A stretch of DNA of 64,000 nucleotides, taken from a virus (taxonomy: Duplodnaviria; Caudoviricetes). The notes under the pieces were generated by a model, which did no database searches, was not told the origin of the DNA, and saw only the letters and a program-made list of their open reading frames with translations. The DNA lies in IMG/VR virus record IMGVR_UViG_3300025018_000091; one strand, given 5' to 3'. Each line of letters begins with the position of its first letter. Position 1 is the first letter of the stretch. The position numbers were made by a program, and so were the translations under genes. Shown piece by piece: positions 12,480 through 58,701 of this stretch.

Positions 12480-13346
12480 ATGAATAATCAGACAAATGAT
12501 GAAAAGAATTATTTAAAACTACTTAACAAAATATTAACTTCTGGTGAAGAGTCTTTAGACAGAACAGGTGTTGGGACTTTTAGATTATTTGGAGAAAAAT
12601 TATCATTTTCTCTAGAAAATGATGCAATCCCGCTCATAACAACTAAACGAATGTTTATAAGAGGCATTGTTGAAGAGTTACTGTTTTTCTTAAGAGGAGA
12701 ATCTGATACTAAAAAACTAGAAGCTAAAGGGGTGAAAATCTGGAAGGGTAATACAACCAGAGAGTTTCTTGATAAAAGAGGATTACATTATCTCCCCGAA
12801 GGAAATATGGGTAAAATGTATGGAAAACAATGGAGAGATTGGGGAGGAACAAAAGATAAAAAGGGTATAGATCAAATTTCTGAAACGATTAATCTCTTAA
12901 AAAAAGATCCATATAGTCGTAGAATTACTGTTAGTGCTTTAAATGTAGCAGAACTCCCAGAAATGTCTTTACATCCATGTCATCCATTATTTCAGTTTTA
13001 TGTTAATGATGATAAATTATCATGTTTATTTTTTATGAGATCTGTAGATATGTTTTTAGGTTTTCCATTTAACATTACAAGTTATGCTATACTTACACAT
13101 ATTATAGCAAAAATTACTAATTTAAAATCACATAGACTGATTTTTATGAGTGGGGATACACATATTTACAAAAATCATATAGAACAGGTAAAAGAACAGA
13201 TTTCGCGAGAACCGTACGATTTTCCAACCTTAAGAATCACAAAAGAACTAAACTCAATAGAGGACATTGAATCTCTAGAATTTAAAGATTTTGTAATTGA
13301 AGGATATAAAAGTCATCCCTCTATTAAGGCAGAAATGGCTGTATAA
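12480..13346 (+). CDS. thyA: Thymidylate synthase
   Basis: DRTGVGT, EELLFFL, YGKQWR, LHPCH, RSVDMFLGFPFN, DTHIYKNH. Confidence 0.97.
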   Translation: MNNQTNDEKNYLKLLNKILTSGEESLDRTGVGTFRLFGEKLSFSLENDAIPLITTKRMFIRGIVEELLFFLRGESDTKKLEAKGVKIWKGNTTREFLDKRGLHYLPEGNMGKMYGKQWRDWGGTKDKKGIDQISETINLLKKDPYSRRITVSALNVAELPEMSLHPCHPLFQFYVNDDKLSCLFFMRSVDMFLGFPFNITSYAILTHIIAKITNLKSHRLIFMSGDTHIYKNHIEQVKEQISREPYDFPTLRITKELNSIEDIESLEFKDFVIEGYKSHPSIKAEMAV

Positions 13347-13738
13347 TGGCTAATATACCCGGACTATTCTATACTTTACCTGGAGTTACATACGCTACTG
13401 TGGCTGAAGAACCTCCAAAAGATTATGTGTTTACACATAATAATACTACACTAACTATAACTATAGATGGATCTATAATCATTGATGGAAATTATAGAGA
13501 TGCAGCAAAGGCATTATTTAATCACGTATTAGAGCGACTAGATTACTTAGATAGCGATAGAACTATATTGCCAAATAAAAAACTGACCTTCATGAAATTG
13601 AATAAGGTCAGCTTAAGTCTTGATAAAAAGATAATATTATCTTATCCTTGGGCAAAAGGCGATGACCCTGTGCCAGAGGAATTTTTTCGTTTACGAATAG
13701 AATTTGATAAACTAACAAAACTAATGGTATTCATATGA
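13346..13738 (+). CDS. Hypothetical protein ending KLTKLMVFI, between thyA and folA
   Basis: 130-aa ORF coupled at both ends. Confidence 0.7.
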   Translation: MANIPGLFYTLPGVTYATVAEEPPKDYVFTHNNTTLTITIDGSIIIDGNYRDAAKALFNHVLERLDYLDSDRTILPNKKLTFMKLNKVSLSLDKKIILSYPWAKGDDPVPEEFFRLRIEFDKLTKLMVFI

Positions 13739-14286
13739 TAGGAATGATAGCAGCAGCTTCAATTAATGGAGTAATTGGTGTAAATAACAAACTACCATTT
13801 CATTATCCAGATGATATGCGACATTTTAGAGAAACAACTGCAGATTCAGTTATTATTATGGGTCGCAAAACCTTTGAAAGTATTGGTAAAGCTTTGCCAA
13901 AACGAGAAAATATCGTTATCACGTCTCAAAACTTAGAAATTCCTCGCGTGACGTGTTGCTCGTCGGTAGCCCAGGCGCTTCTTAACGAAAGTATAAAAAT
14001 ACGTGAACAGTCTATAAACATATGGTTCATCGGAGGCGCTAGCATATATCAAGAAGGAATGTTATATGCAGATGAAATTCATTTAACATTAACTCCCGAT
14101 TATATCGAGGAGAAAAACGTTGTAAAATTTCCATTCATTAATCCATTAATGTTTGAATTGTGTGGATATACACAATTGTCTGACCCACCAAGCGAAAAAC
14201 TTGTGTGTGCTGTATACAAACGTAAAAAACAAAATCATTATTATGAAAAAGTCATTAGCGAAACTAAGATTAACAAAGATATCTAG
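13735..14286 (+). CDS. folA: Dihydrofolate reductase
   Basis: NGVIG..NKLP, DMRHF, IMGRKTFESIGKALPKRENIVIT, FIGGASIY. Confidence 0.95.
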   Translation: MIGMIAAASINGVIGVNNKLPFHYPDDMRHFRETTADSVIIMGRKTFESIGKALPKRENIVITSQNLEIPRVTCCSSVAQALLNESIKIREQSINIWFIGGASIYQEGMLYADEIHLTLTPDYIEEKNVVKFPFINPLMFELCGYTQLSDPPSEKLVCAVYKRKKQNHYYEKVISETKINKDI

Positions 14287-15847: not shown

Positions 15848-16528
15848 TCAATGCCTACGAGAATTTTCTTCGTCTTTTGGTTCTAAAATTATATCTCTTA
15901 TTTGTTGTAACATAGCTAAGCATTCTTTTTTAGAATTAATTTTATCTAAATCAAATTGAACTGCTCTAAATCCAAATTCTTTAGATACAAGTAAATTTTG
16001 TGATAAATCGTCTAGATATACACATCCAGTAAACTTGGGGTATCTTTGAAGGAAACTTTGATAATATAGGGATTGTGGCTTTCTGACGCCAATATCACAA
16101 CTAAAATGTCTAATTGCATGTTTGAAGATACCATGATGATGCATGTTAGTATATTCTGTATTAAAAAATCTATTTATCATTTGGGCATGATCTGTACCAA
16201 CATTTGATAATAAGGCAATATTAATCTGATTATCATCATCGTACATTTTTTCAAAGAAATCTAAAACACTCCAATCAAAAACTACAACTTCTTTATCCCA
16301 AATAGTTAAAATCTTGTCCATAATTACAGAAGATTTAATTTGAAATTCAGAAGCTAATACATCTTTCATATCTAACAAACCAACATCCCGCATCTTTTGT
16401 GAACGATTGACTCTTTGACCAACCTCCCATGTAGATATATTTGTTGCCTCTGATATTGCAAAAGTAAATTTTCTAAAATCTATTCTGCACAATACATTTC
16501 CCATATCTAAAGCTAAATATCTTTTCAT
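15848..16528 (-). CDS. HAD-superfamily hydrolase
   Basis: LALDMGNVL, LLSN, FSCDIGVRKP, YLDD. Confidence 0.85.
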   Translation of the reverse strand: MKRYLALDMGNVLCRIDFRKFTFAISEATNISTWEVGQRVNRSQKMRDVGLLDMKDVLASEFQIKSSVIMDKILTIWDKEVVVFDWSVLDFFEKMYDDDNQINIALLSNVGTDHAQMINRFFNTEYTNMHHHGIFKHAIRHFSCDIGVRKPQSLYYQSFLQRYPKFTGCVYLDDLSQNLLVSKEFGFRAVQFDLDKINSKKECLAMLQQIRDIILEPKDEENSRRH

Positions 16529-17511
16529 ATATCTTCTATTCTTTCATGTAAAAATTTAATGTTTTCATCATATCTTGTATTAACTGATTTTGAAAAATTT
16601 AAATCACTATCTAAATCATAAATAATATCACTTAATCCAAAATGTTCTGATGCCAGACTGTTAATAATGCATTCTGTATCATTATAATCTATTGTAATTA
16701 AACTATATTTACCATTGTAGTATGCATCAGCCAATAAACTTGTTTGACCACTGCAAACAAATAAGTTTGCATTATATAGATTACATGTATATTCATCAAT
16801 ATTTGACATGTCTTTCAATATAATGTTAGGATAATCTTCATTACAATCTTCAGAAAAAATAATAGAGTCTGTGTATCTTTTTAGAAGACCAATGATATTT
16901 TTATTGGGTTGAATCATTCCTGCCACAATATTATGTTTACATATCACAGATGGTTTACCAATAGTATGATAAGGTCTTATCCATTCAAATTCTTCTTTTA
17001 ATTTCAAATCACTATTTGCATCTCCTAAATGAGAATATACAAAATTATAATTGGAATTATCAATCATATTCATAATCCTTTGATTATTTAGAGGAACTTT
17101 ATGAAATAGATAATAGAATCTTTTGAAGAGACCTAAGTTATATTTCTGTTCTTGTGGCAATGCAAAATTTAATAATGAAGAGCTGCATTGCCATAATGTA
17201 GTATTCAATACCATAGCAATATGAGATGTGAAATATTCACAGTCACTTATTATCAAATCAGGATTAAAACTTTTTACTTGATGAAAATATGTTTCAAAAT
17301 TTTCATTGTCTAATGATATATGCTCTGGTTTGAACATATTATAAAGACAATCTAAGGTCCAATCTATATTGATATTATTAGGACTGGATTTTTTATATGT
17401 GGCTATTTTTAATTGATGTGGCTGATTTTTTATTGCATCAACAAATCTCTCCAATTGGATTTTAGAATTAGTATGATTAGAACATGCATACAATATTTTT
17501 AATCTATCCAT
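16525..17511 (-). CDS. Putative GT-B-fold glycosyltransferase-like protein with a replacement N-terminus
   Basis: KILYA, PDLIISDCE, FVCSGQTSLLADA resemble GT-B nucleotide-binding segments; ATG overlaps the endonuclease stop. Confidence 0.55.
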   Translation of the reverse strand: MDRLKILYACSNHTNSKIQLERFVDAIKNQPHQLKIATYKKSSPNNINIDWTLDCLYNMFKPEHISLDNENFETYFHQVKSFNPDLIISDCEYFTSHIAMVLNTTLWQCSSSLLNFALPQEQKYNLGLFKRFYYLFHKVPLNNQRIMNMIDNSNYNFVYSHLGDANSDLKLKEEFEWIRPYHTIGKPSVICKHNIVAGMIQPNKNIIGLLKRYTDSIIFSEDCNEDYPNIILKDMSNIDEYTCNLYNANLFVCSGQTSLLADAYYNGKYSLITIDYNDTECIINSLASEHFGLSDIIYDLDSDLNFSKSVNTRYDENIKFLHERIEDI

Positions 17512-18215
17512 GATTTATTGTTTTTTATTCTAGATATAGTATCTCTATGTACACCAAATAATACCGCAATTTTTTTATTAGAAACACCCCGCGTAATAAG
17601 ATATCTAATAATATTTACTTGTTCTTCAGTTAATTTAGCTGTAGCTAAACGATGTTCCTTACTTTTAGGAATACCTCTTTTAGATTGTGATATTTTATTG
17701 CAAAAATCTTGAGATCTTTTTCTGCCTTTTAATGGTGAGTTTTTATTTTGATTTGGATGTTTTCCTGGTTCATATTTATTGGTGAGAGATTTGGATATTT
17801 TTTCTTTTATATCTTCAGGTGTTGATTTACCTTTATTCCAAGGATCTTTTCCCAAATGCGCTTCAGATATTTTACGTCTAGCCTCTTTAGACATTTTATG
17901 TCCAGAAGTTCCGTCACCACCATCAGTTAAATTGTATAGGCAGTATCCATCATTCTTTAATTTTAGAATCCATTCTTGTTCAAGAGCAAATGCAATATTT
18001 TCTTCTACAATATCATCTACTATAGATGTTAATAAAAAATTATCATACCCATATTTATTTAAGGCAGCATGTAAATAATAATATGAATTTGGATATTTTG
18101 TTTTTCCACCTCTAGCGATTTTTAAGTGATCTCTAAATCTATCATGTAAATTTTTAGTTTTACCAACATAAATTTTACCATTTATTGTATTTATTAAAAA
18201 ATATATGCAATACAT
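17499..18215 (-). CDS. GIY-YIG homing endonuclease with NUMOD3 repeats and C-terminal HTH
   Basis: CIYFLINTINGKIYVGKT, YNLTDGGDG, RRKISEAHLGK, SRIKNNKSW. Confidence 0.92.
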   Translation of the reverse strand: MYCIYFLINTINGKIYVGKTKNLHDRFRDHLKIARGGKTKYPNSYYYLHAALNKYGYDNFLLTSIVDDIVEENIAFALEQEWILKLKNDGYCLYNLTDGGDGTSGHKMSKEARRKISEAHLGKDPWNKGKSTPEDIKEKISKSLTNKYEPGKHPNQNKNSPLKGRKRSQDFCNKISQSKRGIPKSKEHRLATAKLTEEQVNIIRYLITRGVSNKKIAVLFGVHRDTISRIKNNKSWID

Positions 18216-18292
18216 ATTATATTACAATAATATTGATAGAAGCAGCAAGCGCCATAATTATTTGATGCCGCATATAATATCTTTAATTTCAT
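18194..18292 (-). pseudogene. Stranded N-terminal fragment of the 16525..17511 gene
   Basis: 32-codon mini-ORF MKLKILYAASNNYGA..., ATGA-coupled to the exonuclease stop, matching MDRLKILYACSNHTNS. Confidence 0.75.
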
Positions 18293-18897
18293 CCAGTTAC
18301 AGTAGTTTTCATAAAATCTAAAATATCTTTAAAGTATTTTACTTGTTTCATAAAGAGTTCTTTAGTGGCTTTAGTATCTGATGCGGCTGTATGAGCTTTA
18401 TCATTTTTGATACCATACTTTTTGATAATAGTATTTAGATTATAGTAATTTTCAAAATCACCTTTACAATAATCTAAAAATAGCTCAATAACCATTGTAT
18501 CCATATAGCGTCTACCAAATGGATAAGTATCTTTTGAATTACATTTAATCCAAAGTTGTTCTAATCGTTCTAAGTCGAATGAAACATTATGACCGACACA
18601 TAGCCTTTGTCCAGATGGAACGCCATCTTCCATCAACCAATTTTCTATATCAACGATAGCATTATTAGCATTTTTATAAAGCTCCCTGCCTTCCTTAGTC
18701 TCATGTCTTAAATCTTCTAATTTATGACCATTGATTCTAAGAGCTGCGGGTTCGTAGTTTTCGGGATTCGTCGGTTGAATAAGCCATGTTTTTTGAGCGT
18801 CATCGTTTAATCTGTATAAAGATAATTCAATGACGTCATATTTATGAGAATCTAATCCTGTCGTTTCTGTGTCTAATACGTAAATGGTATAATCCAT
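18289..18897 (-). CDS. DEDDh 3'-5' exonuclease, second copy
   Basis: VLDTETTGL, GHNVSFD, AHTAASD; AGGAG RBS. Confidence 0.9.
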   Translation of the reverse strand: MDYTIYVLDTETTGLDSHKYDVIELSLYRLNDDAQKTWLIQPTNPENYEPAALRINGHKLEDLRHETKEGRELYKNANNAIVDIENWLMEDGVPSGQRLCVGHNVSFDLERLEQLWIKCNSKDTYPFGRRYMDTMVIELFLDYCKGDFENYYNLNTIIKKYGIKNDKAHTAASDTKATKELFMKQVKYFKDILDFMKTTVTG

Positions 18898-18926
18898 AAA
18901 AATCTCCTAAGCGTGTGCTCAGGTAT

Positions 18927-18954
18927 AAACTAATACTTAAAAATAACACGTCAA
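18927..18954 (-). promoter_or_regulatory. Sigma70-like promoter
   Basis: TTGACG-16 nt-TAGTTT; the -35 box includes the TGA stop of the upstream gene. Confidence 0.5.
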
Positions 18955-19301
18955 GTGTCGGAATTTATTTTATTTCGTATTTCTGTTTTCAAGTGATTAA
19001 ATGAATTGATGCCACTTTTATATTGAGAAATTAAGAAACTAACACCATCAACTGTTCTAAGAAATGCTTTTTCTTTTTTAGTTAACTTTGTTCCTTCTAC
19101 AACAAACATTACCTTACTATTTTCAAAAATCTTCCATCTTTCTCCATCATTTGGTAATGAATATCTTTTTACTCTAATAATCTTTTCAGCAACATCATCT
19201 TCTTCATGAAAAAGATCATATTCAAATTTACTAAGATTATACTTTAAGTTTTGATCTTTGAATTCATTTTCCACGGTTGGATCTACAGGTTTATTTGTCA
19301 T
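18951..19301 (-). CDS. Hypothetical protein
   Basis: Probable start MTNKPV at 19301 (GAGAG RBS); track start is 19364. Confidence 0.7.
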   Translation of the reverse strand: MTNKPVDPTVENEFKDQNLKYNLSKFEYDLFHEEDDVAEKIIRVKRYSLPNDGERWKIFENSKVMFVVEGTKLTKKEKAFLRTVDGVSFLISQYKSGINSFNHLKTEIRNKINSDT

Positions 19302-19360
19302 TATTCTCTCTAAAGTTTTAAAATCAAGTTTAATAGGATTTTGTAGAAAATTACCACACA

Positions 19361-20572
19361 TCATTTACACACCATATCGGCGGCGATTATGCCAGTAGTC
19401 GCTGCGGATAATATACCATGTATTCCAGCACTTTCACCAACAACATACAATCCGTCCACTTCGGTTTCTAGATTTGTTCCAATATTAATTTTAGGAGCCA
19501 TAGGTGTTATGGTTGGAACATGAAAATAAGCCTTTGTAGAAATATCTGGGATAATATTAGAAATTTCTAAAATTGTTTCTTTAAGCCATTCATATTCAGG
19601 TATAATAGAAATTTTACTTTTACCAGCAAGTATCGTAGATATTCTTTCTTTTATTATACGATCATTAGCTAATACAAAAGTTAATTTTCCAAGTCTATCT
19701 GTTTGTTCAAACCCATAATTAGGATATGTCCTATTGCCTATGATTGTAAAAGAAACCTTATCAGTTTTCCATCGATTTTCATTAGAACGAAATGCTGATA
19801 TTGCCATATCTAAATGATCTTCTGGAATTACAGTTCCATTCCAATTAAATGGTCCAATAGTTAATTTATCATCTTTAGTAATTGTGCATGTAGATTTGTT
19901 AAGCTCTTTCAATATACCAGAACTCATTTCTGCTCTAATTCCAAATCTGGCGATATCATTGCTATCTATTATACCAAAATTAGTATATAGCTCTTTAGCC
20001 CATCTCCAACCACTACGCCCAACTGCAAATATTATCTTTTTACACTTAAACTCTGCCTCTTCTGTAGAAACTATAAACATAGATTTATTCTTATATATAT
20101 TCTCTACTTCCATATCAAATGCATATGTAATATTATTGTTCTGTTCAATTATTTCTGACATATATTTAGATAAAGCATGAATATCTTTAGGATATACTTG
20201 ATAATGATCATTAAGAGATATAGAATATCCATTCTTCTTTAATCTCTTATTAAAAGCTACTGAAGGAGACTTATCCTTAATTAGCTTAAAATTATCAATA
20301 TTTGATATTGTCTTATTAAAATAATTATAAGCAGACTTAGATTTTCGGACACCAACTAATTCAGATACTTTGGATAAATCATTAAGATATAATTTACCAT
20401 CACTATTTGGTAAACAGCCTAACCAGCCCTCAAGTTGACGACGACGTTTCATTGGAGGGCGACCCAAATCAAATAGAATCGCTTTAACATTCTTATGTTC
20501 CTGTGCTAATCGCAATGCAGCAAAGGAACCTGCAACGCCTGCGCCAATAATACCAACATCATAGTTATTCAT
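19361..20572 (-). CDS. FAD-dependent oxidoreductase
   Basis: GIIGAGVAG Rossmann motif, FAVGRSG, ETEVDGLYVVGE.AG..GI..AA..G. Confidence 0.85.
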   Translation of the reverse strand: MNNYDVGIIGAGVAGSFAALRLAQEHKNVKAILFDLGRPPMKRRRQLEGWLGCLPNSDGKLYLNDLSKVSELVGVRKSKSAYNYFNKTISNIDNFKLIKDKSPSVAFNKRLKKNGYSISLNDHYQVYPKDIHALSKYMSEIIEQNNNITYAFDMEVENIYKNKSMFIVSTEEAEFKCKKIIFAVGRSGWRWAKELYTNFGIIDSNDIARFGIRAEMSSGILKELNKSTCTITKDDKLTIGPFNWNGTVIPEDHLDMAISAFRSNENRWKTDKVSFTIIGNRTYPNYGFEQTDRLGKLTFVLANDRIIKERISTILAGKSKISIIPEYEWLKETILEISNIIPDISTKAYFHVPTITPMAPKINIGTNLETEVDGLYVVGESAGIHGILSAATTGIIAADMVCK

Positions 20573-50933: not shown

Positions 50934-51250
50934 AAAAATGCCTTTAACTTTTTTGTTTTCTTAAATAAACGAATTAATTCAGACTCTTTTGCATGAAGAA
51001 TAGCGCACCGTGCCATAGAATCATTTAAAGTGATGTCATAGATATAATAAATAACTGTTATATCATCTGAGGACCAATCATAATCATTATTTTCTAATTC
51101 TGATAAACATATTTCTGCTATATCTTCTCTATCAATATTAACATGTATTGTAGCAAATCCAATATTATATATGTTAATTACATCTACAATAAATTTGGAA
51201 CTACAAACACCAACTTTAGAAAAAAAATCTATACAATTAAGTATCTTCAT
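50930..51250 (-). CDS. Hypothetical protein ending KTKKLKAFL
   Basis: 106-aa ORF, ATGA-coupled on both sides. Confidence 0.65.
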   Translation of the reverse strand: MKILNCIDFFSKVGVCSSKFIVDVINIYNIGFATIHVNIDREDIAEICLSELENNDYDWSSDDITVIYYIYDITLNDSMARCAILHAKESELIRLFKKTKKLKAFL

Positions 51251-51849
51251 ACAACTCTATCTAATATAGACATATCTAAACCTAAACCTTCTACACTAAC
51301 AAATGCATAATCTAGATCTGCTGGTTTATCTGTCATTTGTTTTAGAAATGCTAAATCACCATATGTAGAAATATTAAACCCAAAGGAACTGAAAATATCT
51401 TTATATTTATCGGGAAGCGGAGTTGAGCGATCAATAGAATTATTACTTAATTTACTATTCAATAACACATTAAATTTGTATTCATTCATTATGCCTTCAA
51501 CAGTCATAAAAGATATAGAGGTAAGCCTACGCTTAGCTTTAGTTACCTTATTTAAATAAACCCAATCAATATATTCTTTTAGAAGAACGGGGTCAGAGGT
51601 TAGGTTTGATGCCAACTTTTTAACTTGAAAAACCTCAAAAGATTTTGATGGCGCGGGGCTATTGAATTTGAATTTGTACTTCACTTTATATGTGTCATAA
51701 TACTTTTTGCAAAAATAACCTAAAATATGCGGGACTTTCCATTTAGAAGTATCTAAAGAATCAATCTCTTCAAATTTCTCAAAAAGCCGTTTATATTTCT
51801 CATTGGGAACATCATTTAAGTTATAATAAGAATCATTTAGTGAGTTCAT
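51247..51849 (-). CDS. Conserved hypothetical protein in the replication operon, with a replacement N-terminus
   Basis: 200-aa ORF; ATG overlaps the HNH gene stop. Confidence 0.75.
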   Translation of the reverse strand: MNSLNDSYYNLNDVPNEKYKRLFEKFEEIDSLDTSKWKVPHILGYFCKKYYDTYKVKYKFKFNSPAPSKSFEVFQVKKLASNLTSDPVLLKEYIDWVYLNKVTKAKRRLTSISFMTVEGIMNEYKFNVLLNSKLSNNSIDRSTPLPDKYKDIFSSFGFNISTYGDLAFLKQMTDKPADLDYAFVSVEGLGLDMSILDRVV

Positions 51850-52652
51850 TGTATATTTCCTGAGTGTCTAGATCTTGTTACGCCGTCTAGAACATTTTGT
51901 TTTGAAGGATATGGTCTAAGATTTGTAAGACACCAACATTTATTGAAATTATCATCTGCCATAGACATATATGGCAAATCAGATTGTGGAATAATATGGT
52001 CTATATTCCATGTCCATGTAGATTGATCATTGTCATTCCAAGTTTTTGAATCATATTTACCATAATTGCTCCAGTTCATCCAAGGCTCAAAGTGTTGTTC
52101 AAGATGTTGTTTTAGTTCCATTATTGTATAGGGCAAATACTGTAATATAGATTTCCCTGATTTTGATCTATTATTGGCAGCTAAAGATATCCAAATACTT
52201 GTAGACAATCTGGATCTTAATTTAAAAGCAGGATCTATAGATTTTCTATTTTTTGAATATGAATTGTTTTTAAGGCGAATTTTATCTATGTTATTTTGAG
52301 CATATTGTTTTTGGTATTCTGCTATTTCTTGTTTATGATCTAAAATATATTGTTTGTGATATTCTTCAATCTTCTCTTTATTGTCTTTTGCATATTTTTT
52401 ATTTCTAGATAATTCGCGTTCTTTATTGGTGATATAGAAATTTTTCCTGTAGACACTTCGCTCTTTTTGATGCTTAAGATAATATTCTTTATTATTTTTT
52501 GATATAGTCATCTTATTTTTTAATTTATATTCTTGCACTCTTTTATTATAGCACTCTTTACAACATTTTCTATACGCTTTAGAGTCGGCTCTAAAATGGA
52601 AACTATCTAATTCCTTGTCTTTACCACACATGTTGCACTTTATTGTATCCAT
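51846..52652 (-). CDS. HNH-type endonuclease (putative homing endonuclease)
   Basis: N-terminal CxxC...CxxC, basic helical repeats, FEPWMNW.NYG, WNIDHIIP, NLRP. Confidence 0.85.
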   Translation of the reverse strand: MDTIKCNMCGKDKELDSFHFRADSKAYRKCCKECYNKRVQEYKLKNKMTISKNNKEYYLKHQKERSVYRKNFYITNKERELSRNKKYAKDNKEKIEEYHKQYILDHKQEIAEYQKQYAQNNIDKIRLKNNSYSKNRKSIDPAFKLRSRLSTSIWISLAANNRSKSGKSILQYLPYTIMELKQHLEQHFEPWMNWSNYGKYDSKTWNDNDQSTWTWNIDHIIPQSDLPYMSMADDNFNKCWCLTNLRPYPSKQNVLDGVTRSRHSGNIQ

Positions 52653-52655
52653 GTT

Positions 52656-52763
52656 TTACCTCTGATTGCATACAATAATATGTACGGGTTTCCAATATAA
52701 TTTGCGATAGTTTTCGTTCGGCGCGTCTGTCAACGAGCCGCCCGTGGTATCTTTTTCTTTCAT
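52656..52763 (-). pseudogene. Stranded N-terminal fragment of the 51247..51849 gene
   Basis: GGAG RBS plus 35-codon ORF MKEKDTTGGSLTDAPNENYRKLY..., matching LNDVPNEKYKRLF. Confidence 0.78.
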
Positions 52764-55318: not shown

Positions 55319-56674
55319 TTACTTTCTGCGGTCAACAACCCCACCAACTAATTTTCCAAATGCTGATTGTTTCTGAGAAATCTTATCTTTTATTTTTTGA
55401 GCAGCAGATACATTTTCTTCTGTTCCAGTATCTAATTGTAAACTAAGATTTCTACTATCATCTTTGCCCTTAACAATCTTCATATGATCCTGAGCATCTT
55501 TCTTCAATTGAGTTACTCTGGATTCTGGCAATCCCAATCCTGTAAATATAGAGTATATCTTTACAACTGGTTCAGGAATATCTATAGTATAAATACCCTT
55601 GTATACTCCCTTTGGAGATCCACATTGATCATTTACAATAGCCATTGCATAGTTAACACTAGAACTTGGAATTTGCGCCCAAACTTCTTTGTTTGCAGCA
55701 ATAATTACACCAACATATTTTGATTGCTTTAAATCAAAACCACCAGCAAGTAAGTTTCCATTCAAATTATTGATGACAGCCTCTGCAATAGCAGTATCTT
55801 CAGCATAATTTTCAACAGTCAACTCACCATAAATGGTTAAGCCTTCGCCGTCTGTAAATAACTTTCCCCACTCCATCGGATCAAGTCCCTTAACAGAAGA
55901 TGCCATAGATGATAGAGTATTAAACATATCAATTGGTTCAACAATAGCCTTGTTAGCTGTTGGATAGAAATCAACTTGGCTTATATGTTGATAAATAGAT
56001 TCAATCTTAGCATTATCAACAACAATAAGGTTATTGACTCTCTTTGTTTGAGTGAACTTTGCTAATTTAGAAAGCGTCTCTAATGCGTTTGATTTGGTTT
56101 GCGCATCTTCTGTTTCCATTGGCAATGCAGCGATAACAACTAATGGCTTGCCACTATCTGCTAATAGATCTACTAAGGTTTCACATGAACCTGCGCCTGA
56201 ACCGCCGCCTAAACTTAAGCATAAAACATTTACTAATGCATTTGCAAGCTTATCATTAATTAGTTGTAACATCTCACCACGATGTGACTCAGCAGCAGCT
56301 TTACCAATTTCTATTTCTTTAGCTGCGCCACCAAGTCCATACTCTAACAAAAGCTTATTAGAATCTGGAATATCAATATACTTTAAATCTTGCATAGCCG
56401 TATTAATAGCAATAGCGTCATAACCCAATTTATAAAATGATTCAGCTATTCTGGAGCCAGCTTGCCCGGTTCCTATAATACCTAATACTAAACTTCTTTC
56501 TTTCTTTGCAACAATTTTTGCTGCCATGGGAGTCTCCTGTTTTGCTTGACTTTTTGCTTTAAGGGCTGCTAATTTATCCATATCAACCGAATCTTCAGAT
56601 GGTTTTGTTTCTTGAGAAACGTCATCTATTAGTTCTTCTGGTTTTGTTTCATCTGTAATCGAAGTTGCCGACAT
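55319..56674 (-). CDS. Tubulin/FtsZ-family GTPase (PhuZ/TubZ/CetZ-like)
   Basis: IIGTGQAGSRIA, AINTA..DL, GLGGA, signature SLGGGSGAG, LIVVDN, T7-like LDPME. Confidence 0.92.
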   Translation of the reverse strand: MSATSITDETKPEELIDDVSQETKPSEDSVDMDKLAALKAKSQAKQETPMAAKIVAKKERSLVLGIIGTGQAGSRIAESFYKLGYDAIAINTAMQDLKYIDIPDSNKLLLEYGLGGAAKEIEIGKAAAESHRGEMLQLINDKLANALVNVLCLSLGGGSGAGSCETLVDLLADSGKPLVVIAALPMETEDAQTKSNALETLSKLAKFTQTKRVNNLIVVDNAKIESIYQHISQVDFYPTANKAIVEPIDMFNTLSSMASSVKGLDPMEWGKLFTDGEGLTIYGELTVENYAEDTAIAEAVINNLNGNLLAGGFDLKQSKYVGVIIAANKEVWAQIPSSSVNYAMAIVNDQCGSPKGVYKGIYTIDIPEPVVKIYSIFTGLGLPESRVTQLKKDAQDHMKIVKGKDDSRNLSLQLDTGTEENVSAAQKIKDKISQKQSAFGKLVGGVVDRRK

Positions 56675-56922: not shown

Positions 56923-57051
56923 TTATCTCAAATTATTTAACAACTCCGACCACTCTCTTCTAGTTAAAGGTACTTGTAAATTTTCTTTAAAGTTTTGGAT
57001 ATTTACTGGAAAATCATCAAATCTTTTATTTACTTGTTTTATATCATTCAT
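56923..57051 (-). CDS. Small hypothetical protein (42 aa)
   Basis: Below the cutoff; MNDIKQVNKRFDDF...WSELLNNLR, start overlaps the endonuclease stop. Confidence 0.5.
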   Translation of the reverse strand: MNDIKQVNKRFDDFPVNIQNFKENLQVPLTRREWSELLNNLR

Positions 57052-57748
57052 TTGTATTCCATGTTTTTCCAGAGATAATATTTCCTATTGTGACAGCCGA
57101 AACTCTATACTCTTTAGATAAAGCAACTTTAGTATAATTTCCTGTCTTCCATTTCTCACGAATCTCTTTCACTTTCTGTATTGTAAGTTTTGAATGAGCA
57201 TTATTTTCGCCAGCACACCTACCTTTTGATGAATCTCCAATTTTCTTTTTTGACCATTCTGAGTGTGTTCGTCCAAAAAATGGATTACCATCTCCAGAGA
57301 ACATAATACTCATTTTCCGTAATGTTTCTAGAGATTTTTTCTTACCAAACATGGGATTTCCTTCTCCACTCATTTTCAATGACATTCTTCGTTTATGATC
57401 ATTGGACAAACTTATTGAGTCAAAAACCTGACCTTTTTCGTTATATCCGTATCCATCATCTTCTGAGTTATAAAACTTAATATAGTATAGTTCCCTGTCA
57501 CAACTATCACCAAAACTATTACATTTCTCAAAAACTTCAAAAATAAAATGTTCTGACCCTACAGAACTAATTTCTCTATGTATTTTTTGATGTGTTAAGT
57601 TGTTATCTAATATATGTTCAGCATAATAGTTATGTTGTCTATACCTATATCTGGGATTTTTTGTCCTACCAATATAAACCTTATTATTAAGTAAGTTTGT
57701 TATTTTGTATAAATAGTAAACATCATTAAAGGGACATATATATCTCAT
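57044..57748 (-). CDS. GIY-YIG homing endonuclease with NUMOD3 repeats
   Basis: YLYKITNLLNNKVYIGRT, GYNEK, GEGNPMFGK, GNPFFGRTHS, HTH; ATG 57748 overlaps the rfbB stop. Confidence 0.9.
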   Translation of the reverse strand: MRYICPFNDVYYLYKITNLLNNKVYIGRTKNPRYRYRQHNYYAEHILDNNLTHQKIHREISSVGSEHFIFEVFEKCNSFGDSCDRELYYIKFYNSEDDGYGYNEKGQVFDSISLSNDHKRRMSLKMSGEGNPMFGKKKSLETLRKMSIMFSGDGNPFFGRTHSEWSKKKIGDSSKGRCAGENNAHSKLTIQKVKEIREKWKTGNYTKVALSKEYRVSAVTIGNIISGKTWNTNE

Positions 57749-58701
57749 TTCAAAAACCACTGGTTTGCAAGATACCATTGCACTGTTTGCTGTATACCAT
57801 TAGGAAAAGTGTACTCTGGCATCCAACCTAAAGCTCGAATTTTAGACGAATCAACACTATATCTAAAATCATGCCCAGGTCTATCCTTTGTAAAGGATAT
57901 GAGTTTATGCCCGTCCTTCATAACATTACAGACTTTTTGCACAACTTCTATATTACTTAACTCTTGATTAGCTGAGATATTATAAGTTTCATTTGGTTCA
58001 CCTTTAGCAAGAATAGTTAACAAAGCTGAACAATTGTCAAAGACATGAAGCCAATCTCTCATTTGTAATCCTTGACCATAGATAGGTATCGGATTACCTT
58101 CCAATATGTTTTTTATTACTTTAGGTAAGAGCTTTTCCGGTGTCTGCCTATGTCCATAGTTATTGGAAGATCTTGTAATGTTGTAAATTAAACCATGAGA
58201 TTCATGAGCGGCTTTTACCATTAGCTCTCCAGACGCTTTAGATGCTGAATAAGGGTTTCTGGGATTTAACGGCGCATCTTCAGTCCAAGAAGGCTCTGCT
58301 TCGCTTTTTAAATGACCATATACCTCATCAGTAGATATATAAATCAATTTTTGTACACCATACTTAATGCAAGCATTTGTTATTACTTGAGTTCCCAATA
58401 CATTGGAAGTTACAAATGAATTGGGATCACTTAAAGAATAATCAACAAACGTCTCTGCTGCACCATGTATAACAATATCTGGCTTTTCAAACTGGAAAAT
58501 TGTATCAATAACGTGTTGGTCTCGAATATCAGCTATATGAAAAGTATGATTCTTATTCCAATACATTGAGTTAATTGCATTTGAATTAACTCTATCTATA
58601 CTTACGAAAGTATATGGATGTTTTTCATAAATAGCTTTACGTATAAAATTACCAAATATGAATCCGCAGGATCCAGTAATTAAAACTTTTGGTTTACTCA
58701 T
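57745..58701 (-). CDS. rfbB: dTDP-glucose 4,6-dehydratase
   Basis: LITGSCGFI, HGAAETFVD, ISTDEVYG, PYSASK, NNYG..Q.PEK, RDWLHV, DRPGHDFRY. Confidence 0.93.
   Translation of the reverse strand: MSKPKVLITGSCGFIFGNFIRKAIYEKHPYTFVSIDRVNSNAINSMYWNKNHTFHIADIRDQHVIDTIFQFEKPDIVIHGAAETFVDYSLSDPNSFVTSNVLGTQVITNACIKYGVQKLIYISTDEVYGHLKSEAEPSWTEDAPLNPRNPYSASKASGELMVKAAHESHGLIYNITRSSNNYGHRQTPEKLLPKVIKNILEGNPIPIYGQGLQMRDWLHVFDNCSALLTILAKGEPNETYNISANQELSNIEVVQKVCNVMKDGHKLISFTKDRPGHDFRYSVDSSKIRALGWMPEYTFPNGIQQTVQWYLANQWFLK

Follow-up and report, generated by a model that had tools for sequence, protein, structure and literature searches.

A GIY-YIG endonuclease gene that replaces the start of a glycosyltransferase-like gene in a groundwater giant phage

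We describe a locus in a 64,000-nucleotide (nt) stretch of Caudoviricetes DNA (IMG/VR record IMGVR_UViG_3300025018_000091; hereafter the window) at which a free-standing GIY-YIG endonuclease gene has replaced the start of a glycosyltransferase-like (GT) gene, leaving a relic of the native start stranded upstream. Such an insertion had been proposed in a first-pass annotation made from the sequence alone, and it is real. Here we show the anatomy of the locus, a presence/absence polymorphism of the endonuclease among related phages, conservation of its site, the mosaic ancestry of the invaded gene and the integrity of the catalytic residues. We consider it very likely that the endonuclease gene is the centre of a site-specific mobile cassette lodged in the 5′ end of the GT gene, and that the lineage of the window gained this cassette recently from a diverged donor.

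Anatomy of the locus and the stranded gene start

All genes of the locus lie on the minus strand. The upstream partner is a DEDDh (RNase T-type) exonuclease gene (18897..18289; Pfam RNase_T, E = 2.6e-13) that has a strong AGGAG ribosome-binding site and is syntenic in all related loci. Its TGA stop (18291-18289) overlaps, within an ATGA, the ATG (18292-18290) of a 32-codon mini open reading frame (ORF; 18292..18194) with the translation MKLKILYAASNNYGACCFYQYYCNIICIAYIF. From its ATG to codon 14 this mini-ORF is the original beginning of the GT gene (MKLKILYAASNNYG; 18252..18292; relic 1); it then continues in out-of-context sequence to a stop (18196-18194) that lies 19-21 nt beyond the endonuclease ATG at 18215. 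Relic 1 is followed by five filler bases, by a second block, GCTGCTTCT ATCAATAT (18230..18246; relic 2), and by a spacer lacking a Shine-Dalgarno (SD) motif (18216..18229) that ends at the endonuclease ATG. The endonuclease ORF (17499..18215) encodes 238 amino acids with GIY-YIG, NUMOD3 and helix-turn-helix (HTH) domains. The cassette's host gene, the GT-like ORF (16525..17511, 328 amino acids), begins MDRLKILYACSNHTNS; its ATG falls within the endonuclease ORF, 13 nt from the 3′ end of the latter, and is made of the last base of a serine codon and the TG of a conserved tryptophan codon. Codons 1-17 of this working gene (MDRLKILYACSNHTNSK; 17461..17511) form a replacement N-terminus resembling the allele of an endonuclease-free relative, L008 (related loci are named by such handles throughout).

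The coordinates and frames given for the exonuclease, mini-ORF, endonuclease and GT genes in the first-pass annotation all proved correct against the sequence and the ORF list. It had also described the old and new starts as differing mainly by synonymous changes. Over the 30 nt compared there are 8 base differences, and the description holds by codon count only: 4 of the 6 differing codons differ synonymously, and two residues change (A to C and N to H).

Could the mini-ORF be unrelated to the GT gene, and its likeness a chance product of AT-rich DNA (the window has a G+C content of 32.7%)? Compared pairwise with the window by tblastn, the GT protein yields just an 11-residue match at E = 6.9, which is weak on its own and would leave room for chance. 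We therefore scored the window with a position-specific profile of 11 positions built on the N-termini of 119 homologues. Over all six frames the relic ranks first at 35.2 bits, ahead of the working start itself (28.0) and far above the next match (3.7), whereas the maximum over 100 dinucleotide-preserving shuffles of the 64-kilobase (kb) window was 15.9 bits and 0/100 reached the relic's score. Moreover, relic 1 is identical to the GT gene of one relative, L009, at 33 of 36 nt and to that of another, L227, over its first 22 nt, and four other loci have the same relic, its distance to the endonuclease being constant. The shuffled-sequence comparison was one that the first-pass annotation had set for itself, and we regard chance as already refuted.

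Empty sites, occupied sites and the ancestry of the cassette

Ten related loci (L002-L010 and L227) are free of the endonuclease, and in them the exonuclease gene is directly followed by the GT gene. At nine of these empty sites the exonuclease stop overlaps the GT start or lies no more than 5 nt from it, most with an ATGA or a longer overlap; at the tenth, L004, only an unrelated small ORF stands between the two genes. The arrangement predicted for relatives without the insertion, an exonuclease ATGA-coupled to a full MKLKILYAASNN gene, is found in L227. A profile scan of nine empty-site loci (all but L227) detected no second N-terminal copy, L007 being too diverged to score, and none of the ten loci has room for one. 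Relatives that kept both copies would have refuted the proposal under the other test named in the first-pass annotation, so that this test, too, goes in its favour. The comparative loci thus back the proposal that the native coupled start has been stranded and that the 3′ end of the endonuclease gene supplies the working one. Between relic 1 and the start of L009 (LKILYAASNNYG), the closest relative, whose GT gene is 84% identical, all three differences are synonymous. The endonuclease-free L008, by comparison, starts MDKIKILYACSNHANS (ACSNHANS), and ACSN(H) starts occur naturally in the endonuclease-free relatives L008, L010 and P0034.

Full-length homologues of the endonuclease form a tight group with 53-63% identity to that of the window, and every one with readable context sits between an exonuclease and a GT gene: L011, L012, L013, L014, L095, L096 and L097, with two further contigs for which only gene tables were available. 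The polymorphism at this one site therefore comprises ten empty loci against the window and seven other occupied loci with DNA. In all seven of the latter the endonuclease stop overlaps the GT start. The overlap is an ATGA or GTGA in L011, L012/L013 and L014, whilst the conserved (T/S)-W codons at the C-terminus of the endonuclease provide the GT ATG in L095, L096, L097 and the window. Searching IMG/VR with the endonuclease alignment gave no further same-site carriers, only distant endonucleases (at most 52% identical, partial) at other sites.

Upstream of the endonuclease, a relic ORF (MKILYAA[S/P], then ININA-like codons) is present in L011, L014 and L097, with its ATG exactly 47 nt before the endonuclease ATG. 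In L095 an intact relic ORF starts 47-50 nt upstream; L012/L013 hold a decayed relic, with the block and no start, and L096 a trace only. A 24-nt block, GCN GCN YCT ATC AAT ATN AAY GCA, is 75-92% identical among L011, L014, L095 and L097, whose endonuclease genes are 62-68% identical overall and 45-49% identical at third codon positions; the variable positions of the block itself fall mostly at codon third positions. The relic 2 block of the window matches the sequence upstream of these four endonucleases at 13-16 of 17 nt, although the proteins are only 56-61% identical to that of the window. Relic 2 is an older, cassette-borne remnant of the GT N-terminus (AAS, then a diverged continuation). 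The window thus holds, in tandem, a young recipient-type relic reaching to codon 14 and the 3′ part of an old relic that travels with the cassette. Further matches to the conserved block (more than 119 in metagenome contigs and at least 10 in viral contigs) were set aside as chance, none of the loci listed encoding an exonuclease, endonuclease or GT gene.

The ancestry of the host gene is mosaic. The first 20 codons of the working gene have 81% nucleotide identity to L008 and 65% to L009, whereas in the rest of the gene L009 is closest almost throughout (75-93% in sliding windows). Sites informative between the two relatives split 14:6 (L008:L009) before the breakpoint, over the first 20 sites, and 65:166 after it (231 sites). 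A maximum-likelihood tree of the GT protein from 17 loci, with the first 25 residues removed, groups the window with L009, an empty-site locus (98/95 support). The pair falls within a clade (90/90) of five relatives free of the endonuclease, in which the window is the sole carrier. Across the 17 loci, endonuclease presence must have changed at least three times to fit the well-supported branches. Taken together, the match of the relic to L009, the L008-like codons 1-17 and the nested position in the tree indicate that the lineage of the window gained the cassette recently, with a short right-hand conversion tract of about 50 nt. On the left side, recipient sequence is kept to about codon 14, which leaves roughly codons 14-17 as the only stretch where it has been lost. 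This gap is where we would place the break; given more broadly, its position is approximately codons 12-17.

A different history can be imagined, in which the endonuclease inserted into the phage's own gene, the first codons were duplicated in place, and silent changes in the new copy were selected against self-cleavage. The synonymous majority among the differing codons fits this history, as does the AAS triplet, which is found in 0 working starts of carriers although S occupies that position in 77/119 family members; it may well describe how the ancestral cassette first originated. For the window we judge it improbable. The new start is a natural allele of an endonuclease-free relative, the relic matches the window's closest relative, and the window is nested among phages that lack the endonuclease. 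Moreover, the cassette and its older relic block are shared with endonucleases only distantly similar to that of the window, so that they predate the lineage. The first-pass annotation had read the new copy as recoded, and here we depart from it: the ACSNH variant is natural in both L008 and L010, and about 17 codons look imported. Nor did we take the association of endonuclease presence with a non-serine codon after YAA as a sign of an immune allele, since a start that moves with the cassette leaves the carriers without independence from one another.

Somewhat less probable still is that nothing moved, and that an old resident endonuclease, possibly inactive or domesticated, has been inherited vertically with its patchy distribution produced by repeated loss. 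The deep divergence of the same-site homologues does make the association an old one, and the reads yield no endonuclease-free variant of the window's phage. However, vertical inheritance would need precise losses that restored the exonuclease/GT stop/start overlap at least four times within the clade of the window. It sits poorly with the purely synonymous differences between relic 1 and L009, which imply coding constraint until recently, with a first stretch of 17 GT codons that differs in ancestry from the rest of the gene, and with intact catalytic residues.

We therefore return to the mobile cassette. Its parts are an old remnant of the first ~13 codons of the GT gene, a short conserved spacer, the endonuclease ORF and fresh first codons of the GT gene, whose start overlaps the endonuclease stop such that the host gene is kept intact without an intron or intein. 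During co-infection the endonuclease may cut empty-site alleles near codons 8-14, as expected from homing biology (PMC2988022). Repair of the cut would copy the cassette into the broken gene, and the GT gene would survive because the cassette brings that gene's first codons and start. In the lineage of the window a diverged donor would have supplied the cassette, through gene conversion or the repair of a double-strand break. Relic 1, the start that the recipient had before, would have been left stranded with its ATGA coupling to the exonuclease unbroken, the working GT gene would now open with about 17 codons of the donor, and an imprecise left junction would account for two relics in tandem. 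Expression would then run as a translational relay from the exonuclease through the relic mini-ORF and the SD-less endonuclease to the GT gene.

Several points weigh against this reading. The best breakpoint in the GT gene, at ~nt 53-57 (Fisher p = 2.6e-4), is the best of about 57 positions, and the corrected p is roughly 0.015. The donor lies outside the sampled loci: among full-length relatives of the endonuclease none exceeds 63% identity, and the one near-identical copy lies on a contig of 1.3 kb. Contigs of four aquifer runs show the carrier form only, with its junctions present in two further samples, and no endonuclease-free variant of the same phage; none of them joins across an empty site, though with contigs only this absence proves nothing. 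ACSNH starts occur in endonuclease-free relatives too, such that cleavage resistance of the replacement start is not indicated. The decay of the relic in L012/L013 and L096 means that it is not indispensable. Finally, the phage is uncultured, and we infer both cleavage and relay expression.

Other insertions occur around this site. Some relatives, whether or not they carry the endonuclease, have an optional small ORF downstream of the exonuclease and ahead of the GT gene or relic (L004 4604-4833, L011 2682-2957, L095 406-700); its product is a basic protein of 70-91 amino acids ending ...[RK]LKAFL, and it is decayed in L095. In L012/L013 and L096 the same position holds unrelated ORFs of 108-123 amino acids. 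The exonuclease-GT junction is an insertion hotspot. Further GIY-YIG genes lie at differing positions within a few kb of the locus in L004, L010, L011, L012 and L014, and a P0122 contig has one between an ORF of the 137-amino-acid type and the exonuclease. The region around the locus is densely colonised by endonuclease genes.

The endonuclease, its host gene and their expression

The endonuclease matches the Pfam families GIY-YIG (PF01541, E = 3.8e-10), NUMOD3 (E = 2.2e-11) and HTH_38 (E = 3e-6), and its family profile matches the catalytic domain of I-TevI (1MK0, E = 2.6e-7; also 1LN0). The equivalents of the I-TevI catalytic residues, Y5, Y16, R26, H30, E79 and N95, are invariant in 11 homologues, and therefore the enzyme is probably active. 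It has the hallmarks of a GIY-YIG homing endonuclease: the catalytic domain, NUMOD3 with a C-terminal HTH, polymorphism at its site and co-conversion of flanking sequence. We rejected a group I intron-encoded endonuclease, as no Rfam match was obtained at E ≤ 1 in positions 16000-19500 and a separate start for the host gene follows the endonuclease.

The GT-like gene has more than 450 homologues. Some of these are labelled as TIGR00661 family or match PF13528, for which the protein of the window falls below the cutoff. An AlphaFold2 model of the protein (predicted local distance difference test (pLDDT) 91.3, predicted template-modelling score (pTM) 0.89) has the two Rossmann-like domains of the GT-B fold, and Foldseek aligns it with probability 1.0 and a template-modelling score of about 0.6 to GT1-family (natural-product) glycosyltransferases. 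This confident model bears out the earlier label 'glycosyltransferase-like'. We describe the host gene as a predicted GT-B-fold, glycosyltransferase-like gene and leave its putative activity unassigned, because UDP-GlcNAc 2-epimerases share the fold. The invaded codons cover strand beta1, the loop after it and the beginning of helix alpha1, where the N-terminus of the family is most conserved.

SD motifs, present at 22 of the 65 ORFs of the window against a background of 7.8%, are missing from both the endonuclease and the GT gene. Given this lack and the 13-nt overlap, we infer that translation of the GT gene depends on that of the endonuclease. Ribosomes probably pass from the exonuclease (AGGAG) to the relic mini-ORF, on to the endonuclease and then to the GT gene. 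The next gene downstream (15848..16528, minus strand; 226 amino acids, no family match) is ATGA-coupled to the GT stop, which shows overlapping stop and start codons to be routine in this operon. A scan for sigma-70-type promoters and terminators found nothing above shuffles inside the cassette, the sole terminator-like hairpin lying upstream of the exonuclease, and CTATCAATAT does not recur as a promoter-like motif where genes of the window begin. A hairpin masking the endonuclease start, as a further means of control, is unsupported: near that start, RNA folding in six loci gave no structure beyond that of shuffles (z -0.04 to +1.42).

More tentatively, and with doubt outweighing confidence, we propose that the relic is a selected, working part of the cassette and, jointly, that terminus replacement with preserved stop/start overlaps is a general third way for endonucleases to colonise giant-phage coding sequence, beside introns and inteins. 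The relic could be a leader ORF that hands ribosomes to the SD-less endonuclease, or an uncleavable half-site that limits expression. In the latter case, by analogy with the I-TevI operator, the endonuclease may bind the copy of its target in the relic and so limit its own expression. The idea of a working relic arises because the 24-nt block is conserved beyond the third positions of the endonuclease, varies at its own third positions and keeps the 47-nt spacing.

Genomic setting and comparison with known systems

Related loci are found on viral contigs of 350-450 kb, and a 444-kb contig records a protein identical to the GT-like product of the window; the phage is therefore a giant phage. 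DNA of the window is found in public aquifer and groundwater metagenome runs, and the clade carrying the cassette consists of giant phages from groundwater-type metagenomes. A blastn search of positions 16400-19000 against GenBank phages gave no match. The local minus-strand order begins with a flavin adenine dinucleotide (FAD) oxidoreductase-like gene (20572..19361), followed by a 137-amino-acid ORF, also on the minus strand, that precedes the exonuclease. Elsewhere in the window, at 12480-14286 on the plus strand, genes for thymidylate synthase and dihydrofolate reductase (DHFR) flank a 130-amino-acid ORF. In L010 the DHFR gene instead lies directly upstream of the exonuclease, beside another GIY-YIG gene, and so the order of nucleotide-metabolism genes has been rearranged between relatives. 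A tubulin/FtsZ-family protein with a TubZ-like C-terminal domain is encoded at 55319-56674 (minus strand), a phage tubulin of the PhuZ/TubZ type that is consistent with a giant phage.

Two other endonuclease loci in the window were noted, both on the minus strand. At 51247-52763 an HNH-type endonuclease ORF (52652..51846) is preceded by a mini-ORF (52763..52656) whose LTDAPNENYRKLY resembles the start of the downstream 200-amino-acid gene, LNDVPNEKYKRLF. For this genome the copy in the mini-ORF has an unusually high G+C content, and the locus appears to share the terminus-replacement design. At 57044-57778 lies a second endonuclease gene of the GIY-YIG/NUMOD3 type (by Pfam), the first 34 nt of which fall within the 3′ end of a gene for an RmlB-like NDP-sugar 4,6-dehydratase (58701..57745).

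Among phages, the natural comparison is with the free-standing seg (GIY-YIG) and mob (HNH) endonucleases of T4-like phages, which spread by 'intronless homing' (PMC2988022). The cassette shares with them the class of enzyme, in which a linker joins an N-terminal GIY-YIG domain to a C-terminal DNA-binding domain, as well as presence/absence polymorphism between related phages and co-conversion of flanks. The T4 enzymes commonly lack initiation regions and overlap upstream ORFs, low-level coupling having been proposed for several (PMC2988022); the endonuclease described here likewise has no initiation region of its own and overlaps its neighbour, suggesting translational coupling. T4-type elements are intergenic and cut a neighbouring gene, and the gene-internal cases (mobE in Aeh1 nrdA, mobA in T4 39/60, seg in gene 43 of phage 25) split the gene into two polypeptides (PMC2988022). 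Here, in contrast, the host gene is whole since its terminus has been duplicated. I-TevI, encoded in the td intron of T4, has a homologous catalytic domain with equivalent catalytic residues; unlike I-TevI, the present enzyme is not associated with a group I intron and has another type of HTH (HTH_38) as its C-terminal domain.

Besides intergenic siting and gene splitting, the cassette represents a third solution, here in a phage. By bringing a spare terminus and copying the local stop/start overlap, it keeps the invaded gene whole and would keep translational coupling in register. A limited literature search, which is not proof of absence, found no phage terminus replacement. Tandem young and old relics, together with empty sites and same-site homologues, make up an unusually readable record of what would be one homing event. 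The locus offers a simple system for studying GIY-YIG target recognition at a GT-B motif, the avoidance of harm to a host gene and possible regulation of an endonuclease by a relic. It also carries a warning for annotation, namely that short 'orphan' ORFs beside endonuclease genes of giant phages can be displaced gene termini.

By analogy, the closest precedent for such an element is the terminus-replacing mobile ORF (mORF) of fungal mitochondria. According to PMC3630166 and the work cited there, mORFs replace a gene terminus in Allomyces macrogynus atp6, in atp6, atp9, cox2 and nad3 of Glomus sp., in Rhizopus atp9 and in Mortierella cox2. In these cases a free-standing LAGLIDADG or GIY-YIG ORF lies in a coding gene without an intron, a foreign copy of the terminus is used, and the native C-terminus, which has been displaced, resembles that of the sister taxon more than the inserted copy does (PMC3630166). 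Here too the endonuclease lies inside a protein-coding gene without an intron or intein, as one of two separate but overlapping ORFs. The logic and the diagnostic pattern are the same, with the inserted terminus used and the native one displaced, the relic matching L009 at 33/36 nt against 65% for the working copy. The differences are that mORFs replace the C-terminus of genes in organelle genomes, whereas in the present giant phage it is the N-terminus, including the start codon, that is replaced; and that here the final codons of the endonuclease contain the new start, the old one remains coupled upstream, and a conserved older relic is carried along. With the invaded end not the C-terminus of a mitochondrial gene, the cassette stands outside the described set of mORFs and is mORF-like in the way it works.

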